A stretch of 64,000 bases of DNA from the IMG/VR virus record IMGVR_UViG_3300021142_000007, positions 32,001 through 96,000 of that record; one strand, given 5' to 3'. Positions 3,381 to 49,958 of this stretch are shown piece by piece (the first letter of the stretch is position 1; the number at the start of each line of letters is the position of its first letter). This stretch comes from a virus. Made by a program: the position numbers and the translations under genes. A model generated the notes under the pieces. It saw only the letters and a list, made by a program, of their open reading frames with translations. It was not told the DNA's origin and searched no databases.

Positions 3381-3721
3381 TATTTGTATTTTTTGAACCA
3401 TAAGTTTCGGTTCTGGTTAATAATGATATACAAGTCTTCATCAGATAAAGCTACGCTCTTATCACCGCTTTCCTTGTACTTGTCTCTGTAGTCCCCCTGT
3501 AGTAGTATCTGAAACTTAGAGGATACATCAACGGTAAAGCTAATCACCATCGTAAATGGATTAAAAAACTCGGCACTTGGATTGCTTACAATCTTGGTTC
3601 TGTTTTCTTCGATTAATTCGTTAGCTTTATTGTAGATTGGTGTCGTTATCTTTAATAATAACTGACCCAACCAAAGCAAAGGCGTATTGCCTCTTACTCT
3701 ATTCATTGGTAACTTGCTCAT
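3380..3721 (-). CDS. hypothetical protein
   Basis: ORF coupled to neighbours. Confidence 0.6.
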   Translation of the reverse strand: MSKLPMNRVRGNTPLLWLGQLLLKITTPIYNKANELIEENRTKIVSNPSAEFFNPFTMVISFTVDVSSKFQILLQGDYRDKYKESGDKSVALSDEDLYIIINQNRNLWFKKYK

Positions 3722-12986: not shown

Positions 12987-13047
12987 CTTCAAAAAAAGTG
13001 GGGCTACTATTTGGTAGTCCCATTTCTTTTTCATATATTTGCATTAT

Positions 13048-13179
13048 AATCGGGTGGCGAAATTGGTAGACGCACATAGAGTCATGGTGAAGCACTTTGT
13101 AAAAAGAAAGCCCATGTTTAAGTTTAAAGCTATCTATGATTGGTTGCAAACAATGCAGGTTCGAGTCCTGCTCCGATTA
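13048..13179 (+). tRNA. atypical tRNA-Leu-like gene with a 54-nt anticodon loop
   Basis: Acceptor AATCGGG/TCCGATT+A; D arm TGGCGAAATTGGTAGACGC; T arm GCAGG-TTCGAGT-CCTGC; stem CATAG/CTATG; promoter at 13034-13041. Confidence 0.75.
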
Positions 13180-14109: not shown

Positions 14110-14310
14110 TTAGTCAGGTATTTTTTCAAATATTTCACCCAGTGATTTATAACCAAACATGTGGTTCAACCATAGATTACCAAAGACCCCACCATTATCA
14201 CCAACGAATCTAACTTGTGTTTCTTTGATAGATACGTCATAGACCTTATTTCGGCTGAGGATGCCAGCTTGTATTGGCAGTTCGTTTTTTGCTATGTATT
14301 TTACTTTCAT
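14110..14310 (-). CDS. hypothetical early protein
   Basis: ORF; ATG immediately after promoter. Confidence 0.6.
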   Translation of the reverse strand: MKVKYIAKNELPIQAGILSRNKVYDVSIKETQVRFVGDNGGVFGNLWLNHMFGYKSLGEIFEKIPD

Positions 14311-14535
14311 GGTACAAATATAAGCATAAAAAACGAAACCCCCAAATTTCTTTGAGAGTTTCGTTCCTTTTTTATTACTATAATTTCAATGCTTATGACA
14401 AGATGTTTTATTTCATACCTTATAGAGTTTTGGGGTTAATTAATACTTATAAATTTTAACATTAATTCTCTTGATATTCCAGTTACTTATTTACTGGGAC
14501 TGCCTTTGTTTCGTGCCATTTTTCAGAGTTGTGAG

Positions 14536-22003: not shown

Positions 22004-22075
22004 TACCGCGTAGGGAATTCGAATCCCTGACTTCTCCGTGAAAGGGAGACGACTTAACCACTTGTCGAACGCGGC
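22004..22075 (-). tRNA. tRNA-Glu (anticodon TTC)
   Basis: Full cloverleaf: GCCGCGT/ACGCGGT, TCTCC-CTTTCAC-GGAGA, AGGGA-TTCGAAT-TCCCT; CCA not encoded. Confidence 0.93.
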
Positions 22076-31888: not shown

Positions 31889-32230
31889 GATTACGTGTTT
31901 TGATTATGAATGCAAAGATAAACCTTTTTTCCGTATTTCCAAATGTTTTAACAAAAAAAATGCCCTAGCGAATATTCACTAGAGCATTACCATTAAAACC
32001 AAGTCTCTTTAGTCTTCTACACCGACAAGAGTAGTGTCACTACCACTTATGGCTACATCAGGGGTATTAGGGTCATAGACCAATGATGCTACCATAGCTT
32101 CAATTAATTGGTCAGGATTAGGATGACCATCAGAAATACTTACCTCCAGCTCTGCTGTAATTTTTACTTTTTTTACCATTTGTTTTTATTTAGGATACAA
32201 ACATACAACCTTTTTTCCGTATTTCCAAAT

Positions 32231-49040: not shown

Positions 49041-49305
49041 ACTTTTGTTTTATGATGCTAAGGTAAGAAACTTATTTCAGACTACCAAGAATTCATGTGG
49101 AATTATTTGCTGGTATTTAATTTTTGTTTTCGAGTATATCATCAACAACCATACTAGAGGCTATCAATACAAATATCATAAGACCATCAAGAAACGTATT
49201 CTCATCCTTACACAGGATAATAAGGCTCATTATTGCTGAAGCTAATTCAAGAAGTATAATTATGAATCTGTATATCTTTGTCATGGTAGGTATTTTTCGG
49301 TGTTC

Positions 49306-49500
49306 TGGGTGACACGATTTGTGCCACCCATACTACCCGTTTGTGATTGTTGTCTTTTTCACCTAAGCCCTAATCAAGTGCTGGAAGCATTCGGCTGTTA
49401 AACACGCATGTCAATAAGGCTAGAGGGGTGTTTAACAGCTTATAGGTGAACATCGTATTATCCGACAAGATAATCTAACCACCAGCATAACCTCTAGTCT
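49306..49500 (-). ncRNA. candidate multi-pseudoknot structured RNA
   Basis: Seven complementary segment pairs, several non-nested; directly 3' of the tRNA-like gene. Confidence 0.6.
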
Positions 49501-49505
49501 TCGTG

Positions 49506-49608
49506 TAGGGGGAACAGGACTTGAACCTGTACGATGTGCGCTCCTTATTTGTACACAACAAGGGCATCAAGAGTTCCCTCCCGCGTCTACCAATTTCGCC
49601 ACCCCCCT
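49506..49608 (-). tRNA. atypical tRNA-Leu-like gene lacking an anticodon loop
   Basis: Acceptor AGGGGGG/TCCCCCT+A; D arm TGGCGAAATTGGTAGACGC; T arm ACAGG-TTCAAGT-CCTGT; GGGAG-GGAA-CTCTT replaces the anticodon arm; about 38-nt extra arm. Confidence 0.75.
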
Positions 49609-49613
49609 ATATC

Positions 49614-49898
49614 TTACTCGCTGTCAATGACCGCGCTTATGTCTTTTACAAATTGCTTAATCAGCTTTTGTATTTGTTCGTTTTGCTTACCGTTTAGCTG
49701 ATGATTCACATCATCGTTCATTGTACGGTTGTTTACTCTTTGCATGACGTTCTTTACGTCAAGTGTTGATAGACTTGTTCTTTCATTCCCTGTCATATAG
49801 CCTCTGAAAGCTACCATCTTTTCAATGAATGCTTTGTTTGGTCTATTTCTTTCGCTGGTTTTAACAGGTGCTTTGGTTTTTTTTGTTTCTACAGACAT
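49614..49898 (-). CDS. hypothetical protein
   Basis: ORF with own promoter; stop 5 nt before the tRNA-like gene. Confidence 0.65.
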   Translation of the reverse strand: MSVETKKTKAPVKTSERNRPNKAFIEKMVAFRGYMTGNERTSLSTLDVKNVMQRVNNRTMNDDVNHQLNGKQNEQIQKLIKQFVKDISAVIDSE

Positions 49899-49958
49899 GA
49901 TATGTATTTTTGATTATGATACAAAGGTAATACTTTTTTTCAGACTTCCAAATATAAC

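Follow-up and report, generated by a model that had tools for sequence, protein, structure and literature searches.

The region downstream of an anticodon-less tRNA-like element in a virus record from IMG/VR (IMGVR_UViG_3300021142_000007; positions 32,001 to 96,000, a stretch of 64,000 nt referred to here as the window) raises the question whether the complementary segments at 49306-49500, read on the minus strand downstream of that element, belong to a structured non-coding RNA and, if so, whether this RNA is known. We found that the minus strand encodes a non-coding RNA of about 209 nt in this phage (49297-49505), reaching from just after the tRNA-like 3' end to the 3' side of a helix termed Hd, which has an intricate, pseudoknotted fold conserved in a small group of very large freshwater phages and matches no family in Rfam 15.

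First, we examined the seven pairings proposed in a preliminary description of the locus, and all of them are present in the sequence. The pair 49491-49497/49420-49426 is part of a longer helix, P1 (49491-49501/49416-49426), 49482-49487/49379-49384 lies within helix Ha (49481-49487/49379-49385), 49457-49462/49469-49474 forms hairpin H2, 49443-49450/49358-49365 is helix Hb, 49428-49439/49394-49405 lies within helix H4 (49427-49440/49393-49406), and 49306-49330 is hairpin He. The segments 49464-49468/49350-49354, which connect the H2 loop with a GAC-containing junction, are complementary in the window as well, but the invariant GUC of the H2 loop can pair with a GAC either in that junction or in the H4 loop, and the comparative data do not decide between them. 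The gap to the tRNA-like element, described before as 5 nt, is 4-5 nt, with the discriminator at 49506 and P1 starting at 49501. The minus strand folds better than chance, with an MFE of -59.6 kcal/mol and z = -2.57 (1 of 200 shuffles folds as well), as compared to z = -1.80 for the plus strand (7 of 200).

To test if the fold is under selection we searched for relatives with a covariance model (CM). The window gave a hit spanning 49288-49506 at 154.8 bits (E about 6e-36), and hits ranging from E 9e-11 to 6e-65 were obtained in the window plus 14 further contigs, with a single copy in the 135-kb record and one copy per record in the 3 whole records searched. Six of the seven pairings recur in 13 other loci from related uncultured phages (individual loci are designated by L or G numbers), and P1, Ha, H2, Hb and H4 as well as an additional helix, Hc (49385-49388/49367-49370), are each kept by compensatory changes. 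On a structure-blind MAFFT alignment of 9 sequences 96.0% of 398 cells pair and 30 of 45 pairs show double changes, a result reached by none of 500 shuffles, whereas slid controls, which keep relatedness, pair at 36-48%. CM-made alignments gave 95.5% paired cells and 36 of 45 compensatory pairs with 11 sequences, and 92.9% and 37 of 49 pairs with 13 sequences. Although CM-made alignments lean towards the structure of the model, P1, Hb and Hc were not part of it and still pair at 91-100%. The most divergent members, L012 and L014, replace whole helices yet keep the pairing.

The topology comprises two interlocked H-type pseudoknots whose 5' strands lie side by side at the 5' end of the RNA. In the first, the 3' strand of P1 lies inside the loop of H4 (49393-49440), a helix of 12-14 bp; 6 of 9 P1 pairs counted show changes on both sides with 91-95% of cells pairing, and 11 of 14 H4 pairs are compensatory with 94.5% of cells pairing. 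In L003 and L013 the H4 loop carries an extra insert of about 150 nt. In the second pseudoknot the 3' strand of Ha lies inside the loop of the 4-bp helix Hc (49367-49388); 7 of 7 Ha pairs show compensatory change with 97.8% of cells pairing (98.4% in the MAFFT alignment), and 3 of 4 Hc pairs are compensatory. A strain variant at 49367 (C to U on this strand) would turn a G-C pair of Hc into G-U. Both pseudoknots are clamped by Hb, which encloses H4, Hc and the 3' strands of P1 and Ha, with 5 of 5 pairs counted being compensatory and 100% of cells pairing. Hairpin H2 (49457-49474), which sits between the pseudoknots, has 4 of 6 compensatory pairs after inclusion of L012 and L014, and a 6-nt loop with the invariant GUC. 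The 3' domain (49298-49339) consists of the short helix Hd, a purine-rich internal loop and the stable hairpin He. As MAFFT could not put the variable He hairpin in register, we relied on single-sequence folds here, which show the same architecture in 14 of 14 members, with He stems that differ in sequence. An optional small hairpin (Hf) in the long-form members looked plausible by eye, but was only 56-64% paired in the alignment and is not claimed, and a blind scan for further covarying stacks was too noisy to add helices.

The alignment contains 34 invariant columns, 25 of which lie outside the six core helices. These include the GUC of the H2 loop, a U-N-GAUUAG block in the loop of Hc (GAUUAG at 49370-49375) and a single-stranded UCACAA block (49340-49346) followed by the CGG of Hd. 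Complements of the invariant UCACAAUCG block are not enriched in the window (3 found against 4.4 expected, one being the block's own site read on the opposite strand). No reading frame stays open through the RNA in any of 13 members; the longest stop-free stretches are 34-59 codons, on varying strands and frames, and the longest frame in the RNA of this phage is 37 codons.

We asked next if the RNA belongs to a known family. At gathering thresholds the 4227 covariance models of Rfam 15 yielded only one ordinary tRNA in the window (22004-22075), and only tRNA hits outside the RNA in 8 related loci. With permissive filters nothing overlapped 49297-49505 at E up to 10, L003 gave nothing at E up to 0.01, and L022, L012 and L168 gave only one antisense hit at E 0.71; altogether the window and 12 related loci were searched without a match for the RNA. 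ARAGORN found nothing at the locus or in 13 related loci, the Rfam tRNA model covers 49506-49608 only, and the 5' and 3' ends of the RNA do not pair with each other, so that neither a tRNA nor a tmRNA is indicated. He does not qualify as an intrinsic terminator, as a U-run follows the enclosing Hd helix only in L003 and L015 and is lacking in the window. Among GenBank phages there were no relatives, either by DNA or by the protein encoded upstream. A two-block pattern gave 4 stretches, three being unrelated and one lying on the L003 contig. None of the 80 loci returned was real by CM (best E 0.064). A three-block pattern gave 43 stretches, 2 of which were real (L168 and L185), a second three-block pattern gave 53 stretches and nothing new, and a strict pattern gave none in bacterial and archaeal genomes. 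No description of the RNA was found in the literature searched, although a prior listing cannot be excluded. Thus, the inference of the preliminary description that this is a new structured RNA of no known family is supported.

To obtain hints at function we analysed the genomic context. Directly upstream lies a tRNA-Leu-like element (49506-49608, minus strand) with an acceptor stem, D and T arms, a GGAA-capped hairpin in place of the anticodon arm and no encoded CCA, which scores 34.4 bits with the Rfam tRNA model (gathering score 29) but is not called by ARAGORN. The preliminary description suggested that tRNA processing could release the RNA, but this link is not universal. A tRNA-shaped element ends 4-20 nt upstream of the RNA in 6 of 14 loci, and in 6 others the RNA starts within about 10 nt of the stop codon of a 94-aa gene, so that tRNA processing can be only one of the ways of release. 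The 94-aa gene (49614-49898, minus strand in the window) lies upstream on the same strand within 1.7 kb in 15 of 15 RNA-bearing contigs and, conversely, the RNA is present in 13 of 14 protein-bearing loci with at least 680 nt of downstream sequence, L017 being the exception. The protein has a Lys/Arg-rich N-terminus, modelled with low confidence, and three helices in an AF2 model (pLDDT 79.8). It has no Pfam or PHROG family, no PDB fold match and no Atlas neighbour; a profile search found only 26 representatives, all orphan, the profile gave nothing in bacterial and archaeal genomes, and distant relatives gave no viral locus. A Bacteroidota-type promoter motif (TTTG ... TAnnTTTG; 49922-49952, minus strand), with 55 matches in the window against 5.9 expected, precedes the gene and is the likely start of the transcript carrying the RNA. 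Such a motif precedes the 94-aa gene in 11 of 12 loci, and in 9 of them there is none between gene and RNA, as in the window. New promoters start 8 and 31 nt after the RNA in L003 and L014, respectively, which fits a discrete RNA end. A 55-aa hydrophobic ORF (49117-49284, minus strand) starts 12 nt after the 3' domain.

Based on these observations we suggest, with moderate confidence and without RNA-level data, so that ends, abundance and processing are inferred, that the RNA is made by the host polymerase as the tail of the transcript starting at the promoter of the 94-aa gene or, in L185, at a promoter of its own. It would then be cut free at its 5' side, by RNase P or RNase Z where a tRNA-shaped element precedes it, and elsewhere by another endonuclease or by the RNA itself, would be protected at its 3' end by the Hd/He stem, and would work as a stand-alone folded RNA whose invariant single-stranded nucleotides form a binding site. 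Most likely it would be the RNA half of a small RNP, with the co-transcribed basic 94-aa protein as the first candidate partner. However, the link between protein and RNA may reflect inherited gene order only, as all members come from one clade with 45-80% protein identity. Moreover, another gene lies between protein and RNA in G001 and G002, 1.4-1.7 kb with further promoter motifs intervene in L012 and L014, and six loci have no tRNA-shaped element upstream, so the release mechanism is not uniform.

Other explanations appear less likely. A short hydrophobic ORF that starts 12-35 nt after the RNA in 8 of 14 loci (the window, L018, L021, L022, L024, L025 and L168, and L185 after a further tRNA-like element) would also fit a cis-acting leader, i.e. 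a riboswitch or a translational or stability element, since after tRNA-type processing the RNA would form the 5' end of that message and its invariant unpaired blocks could form a ligand pocket. Yet this is doubtful, as a new promoter or a spacer follows the RNA in L003, L010, L013 and L014, tRNA-like genes follow it in L020 and L185, the next ORF in L015 is not hydrophobic, and in L012 no ORF follows within the 164 nt left on the contig. In addition, the downstream ORFs are not one family, the 3' hairpin lacks a U-tract in 12 of 14 members, leaving no recognisable terminator-type expression platform, and no riboswitch model matches. Similarly unlikely is a mere 3'-UTR element of the 94-aa mRNA, acting as a nuclease-resistant cap or unconventional terminator. 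Its position directly after the stop codon in 6 loci, its co-orientation in all, the terminal stem-loop and the U-runs in L003 and L015 would agree with this, but eight helices, at least two pseudoknots and 25 invariant unpaired positions are far more than such an element needs. Further, tRNA-shaped elements, another gene or 1.4-1.7 kb separate it from the gene in 8 of 14 loci, where processing would detach it from that mRNA, and in L185 it has its own promoter.

The RNA might also be a ribozyme, cleaving itself at or near its 5' edge or acting on other RNAs such as the insert-bearing tRNA-like transcripts of this clade. The multiply pseudoknotted fold with invariant unpaired nucleotides, the onset within about 10 nt of the preceding stop codon in 6 loci without another visible processing signal, and the presence of tRNA-like genes with inserts in the same genomes would be in line with this. 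On the other hand, no known ribozyme model matches, the RNA is probably far larger than small self-cleaving ribozymes, and self-cleavage would be redundant where a tRNA-shaped element is present, making this possibility tentative at best. A chance fold or alignment artefact can practically be excluded: the single-sequence z-score is modest and relatedness of the members inflates shuffle tests, but the structure-blind alignment, the slid controls, the helices absent from the CM and the divergent members L012 and L014 all argue against it. Finally, it is conceivable, though unlikely, that the RNA represents a new class of catalytic or self-assembling RNA, either a ribozyme that frees itself from the upstream message or processes the clade's tRNA-like genes with inserts in or in place of the anticodon arm, or an RNA-only assembly in the manner of ROOL and GOLLD built from a unit a third to a quarter of their size.

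RNAs that keep eight helices, several pseudoknots and blocks of invariant unpaired nucleotides are rare, and even if this one is only a lineage-specific structural RNA of minor effect it is a clean new family for Rfam. The same genomes hold many tRNA-like genes that standard tRNA finders miss, so RNA biology in this clade seems unusually rich. The RNA adds a third, unrelated example to the unexplained link between phage tRNA clusters and ornate non-coding RNAs. GOLLD and ROOL are phage-encoded, often near tRNA islands, as the preliminary description had noted, and have elaborate pseudoknotted structures but no known protein partner or function (10.1101/2024.12.08.627333). Likewise, the RNA studied here is multiply pseudoknotted and sits next to tRNA-like elements in a huge phage, with such elements directly upstream in 6 of 14 loci and downstream in L020 and L185. 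However, GOLLD often exceeds 800 nt and ROOL probably measures about 600 nt, whereas members of this family are 216-250 nt long by CM hit span, and the Rfam library, which according to the same paper holds GOLLD and ROOL profiles, gave no hit at E up to 10 on the window stretch or, apart from the antisense hit mentioned above, up to 1 on relatives. Release by tRNA-processing enzymes, as proposed here for the window, L003, L014 and L185, probably also applies to the small stable RNAs of the phage T4 tRNA gene cluster (species 1 and 2 RNAs), which appear to be co-transcribed with tRNAs. A tRNA-shaped module that recruits RNase P or RNase Z and so defines the end of a neighbouring RNA is likely found in MALAT1 with mascRNA too, but this eukaryotic module would define a 3' end, whereas here the element would define the 5' end and is absent in 8 of 14 loci. 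The strand order, with a first helix at the 5' edge, the 5' strand of a second helix, a hairpin, the 3' strand of the first helix and later the 3' strand of the second, seems similar to that of HDV-type nested double-pseudoknot ribozymes, but the RNA is probably three to four times larger, both 3' strands sit in loops of extra helices (H4, Hc), and a clamp helix and a 3' domain are added.

The window comprises bases 32001-96000 of a 135,399-base virus record that is rated 36% complete by CheckV, indicating that the phage is huge, and a related record of 232,931 bases is rated 64% complete. The Bacteroidota promoter motif TTTG(N15-23)TAnnTTTG occurs 55 times in the window against 5.9 expected, mostly on the minus strand, and many of the matches share a longer TTTGGAAAT...TATCTTTG form on the minus strand between 14 and 33 kb. 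The host is therefore most likely a member of the Bacteroidota. All genes around the candidate RNA are located on the minus strand. In order along that strand, a promoter motif (49952-49922) is followed by an ORF of 94 aa (49898-49614), a tRNA-Leu-like element (49608-49506) that scores 34.4 bits on the Rfam tRNA model but is missed by ARAGORN, the candidate RNA itself (about 49505-49297), and a hydrophobic ORF of 55 aa (49284-49117).

Every pairing listed in the preliminary description, which had proposed a multiply pseudoknotted RNA at this site, is present. The minus strand folds to -59.6 kcal/mol with z = -2.57, and 1 of 200 shuffles folds as well, whereas the plus strand gives z = -1.80. 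On its own this is modest, and the decisive evidence is comparative.

Having confirmed the pairings we searched next for relatives. GenBank phages hold nothing similar, and the search gave one IMG/VR contig (L003) and 17 metagenome loci. Reading the DNA downstream of the gene showed the same RNA, and a covariance model built from nine copies found it in 13 contigs with E from 9e-11 to 6e-65, namely in the window, L003 and the contigs L013, L010, L012, L014, L015, L018, L020, L021, L022, L024 and L025, with L013 mirroring L003. Contig L017 has the protein and 682 nt of downstream sequence but no RNA, whereas L009, L011, L016, L019 and L023 end too soon to tell. A three-block DNA pattern combined with the model added two further loci, L168 and L185, two other pattern scans added nothing, and bacterial and archaeal genomes gave nothing. 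The RNA is single-copy in the three whole records that could be searched. The family is small, with only 14 distinct sequences, and confined to one clade of uncultured phages. The window's stretch occurs in sequencing runs labelled freshwater metagenome, four of which aligned at 99% identity or more.

To test if the fold is conserved, we counted base pairs and compensatory changes for a pseudoknotted model of six helices, P1 (49491-49501 / 49416-49426), Ha (49481-49487 / 49379-49385), H2 (49469-49474 / 49457-49462), Hb (49443-49450 / 49358-49365), H4 (49427-49440 / 49393-49406) and Hc (49385-49388 / 49367-49370). In a MAFFT alignment of 9 sequences, made without any structure, 96.0% of 398 cells pair and 30 of 45 pairs have changes on both sides. 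No shuffle of 500 reaches either value, and partners slid by 1-3 columns pair at 36-48%. An alignment of 11 sequences gave 95.5% paired cells and 36 of 45 compensatory pairs, and an alignment of 13 sequences gave 92.9% and 37 of 49, the latter count including a tentative extra hairpin that did not hold up. Per helix, the 13-sequence alignment showed compensatory changes in 6 of 9 pairs for P1 (91% of cells paired), 7 of 7 for Ha (98%), 4 of 6 for H2 (95%), 5 of 5 for Hb (100%), 11 of 14 for H4 (94.5%) and 3 of 4 for Hc (96%). The covariation is strong but phylogenetically shallow for H2, and absent for the invariant blocks. P1, Hb and Hc were not part of the model used to align the 11 and 13 sequences, so their support does not come from fitting.

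In this topology the 3' strand of P1 lies in the loop of H4 and the 3' strand of Ha lies in the loop of Hc, while Hb encloses H4 and Hc but not the 5' strands of P1 and Ha, giving two interlocked H-type pseudoknots plus a crossing clamp. The 3' domain has a short helix Hd, a purine-rich internal loop and a hairpin He of 7-11 bp, and it is found in 14 of 14 members folded one by one, with many different He sequences. Thirty-four columns are invariant in 13 sequences and 25 of them lie outside the six helices, notable blocks being GUC in the H2 loop, U-N-GAUUAG in the Hc loop and UCACAA before Hd. The seventh pairing of the preliminary description, between the H2 loop and the junction, is unresolved, as the invariant GUC can pair with GAC in the junction before UCACAA or with GAC in the H4 loop, and each option has one or two compensatory cases and several failures.

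L003 (about 3455-3610) and L013 carry an extra insert of about 150 nt in the H4 loop that is absent from the close relative L010 and splits the covariance model hit into two pieces, and the long-form members have about 20-25 extra nucleotides between Hb and UCACAA. Such tolerated expansions at loops are typical of structured RNAs. No frame is open through the RNA in any member. Strain variants seen in DNA contigs fit the model, as C to U on the RNA strand at 49367 would turn a G-C pair of Hc into G-U and the change at 49454 lies in an unpaired linker, but depths are low, so that this support is weak.

The 94-aa gene lies upstream on the same strand in 15 of 15 RNA-bearing contigs, with a spacing of 4-10 nt in six loci (L015, L020, L021, L022, L024, L025), 67-270 nt in L018, L003, L013 and L010, 107 nt in the window, and 1.2-1.7 kb in L012, L014 and the contigs G001 and G002. 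The junction at 49609-49613 looks like a hotspot for insertions, as contigs from three freshwater runs (X3, X4, X5) carry other sequence between the stop of the 94-aa gene and the tRNA-like element, the extra piece being about 537 nt in the X5 contig, and the other loci also suggest this. Directly after the 94-aa gene, L012 (410-540) and L014 (2756-2890) share a conserved GC-rich stretch of about 120 nt with long-range complementarity, a different, unassigned structured element, and further down, just before the RNA or tRNA-like element, they share a conserved 45-nt hairpin. A promoter motif precedes the 94-aa gene in 11 of 12 loci, with none between gene and RNA in 9 of them. L185 has a promoter 88 nt before the RNA, ahead of a tRNA-shaped element, and new promoters begin 8 and 31 nt after the RNA in L003 and L014. 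Downstream of the RNA, small hydrophobic ORFs are found in 8 loci, whereas the other loci have promoters, tRNA-like genes, an unrelated ORF or too little contig.

An element with an acceptor stem and a T-arm-like hairpin ends 4-20 nt before P1 in 6 of 14 loci, counting L013 with L003, these being the window, L003, L014, L185, L018 and L168. In L018 (2742-2800) and the matching stretch of L168, a conserved element of about 55 nt with two hairpins closed by a short stem (z = -3.2) lies between the upstream gene and the RNA and looks like a miniature tRNA-shaped processing signal. A second tRNA-Leu-like gene at 13048-13179 on the plus strand of the window, with a promoter motif at 13010-13041, shares an identical 22-nt D-arm stretch with the element at 49506-49608. 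It carries an insert of about 52 nt where the anticodon loop should be and is called neither by ARAGORN nor by Rfam (E up to 10). Related phages carry tRNA-model hits of 88-120 nt, and L185 has a Leu-type D-arm followed by a long insert (L020 3001-3120 and 3445-3562; L185 about 14150-14350; L014 4359-4446). ARAGORN finds 0 tRNAs in all 13 loci. The clade seems rich in tRNA-like genes with inserts or missing arms.

The 94-aa protein (49614-49898, minus strand) has a Lys/Arg-rich N-terminus that is modeled with low confidence, followed by three predicted helices (AF2, pLDDT 79.8). It has no Pfam or PHROG family and no PDB fold match, and it belongs to a tiny orphan family with only 26 representative clusters of 35-199 residues in 1.84 billion proteins, which has an invariant G...N...R core pattern and no detectable relation to any Pfam or PDB entry.

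We are highly confident that this is a selected, structured, non-coding RNA family that is absent from Rfam 15. No description of it was found in two full-text searches of the literature, although prior listing as an unnamed candidate cannot be excluded, since a catalogue of 10,006 candidate viral RNAs built from IMG/VR lists its motifs only in supplements (PMC10690425). How the RNA works is inferred without transcript data. In the simplest reading, which we consider about as likely as not, the RNA is transcribed as the tail of the message of the 94-aa gene and cut free at its 5' side, by RNase P or RNase Z where a tRNA-shaped element is present, as in this window. The Hd/He stem would stabilize it at the 3' end, and it would then act as a free folded RNA through its invariant unpaired nucleotides, probably as a protein-binding scaffold. 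The co-transcribed 94-aa protein is the first candidate partner, but this part of the reading is only tentative. Alternatively, the RNA might be a ribozyme or a mere 3'-UTR cap or terminator, both of which we regard as unlikely, or, slightly less likely still, a cis-acting leader or riboswitch for the downstream small membrane proteins, whereas an artefact is very improbable.

By any test we could run the RNA is not a tRNA, a tmRNA or a terminator, and it matches no known riboswitch or ribozyme model. The order of its strands is reminiscent of the nested double pseudoknot of HDV-type ribozymes, but nothing else is. The nearest kind is the set of ornate phage RNAs that sit near tRNA islands, ROOL and GOLLD. 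Their Rfam models do not match and size, sequence and fold differ, whereas the context and the unknown function are the same.
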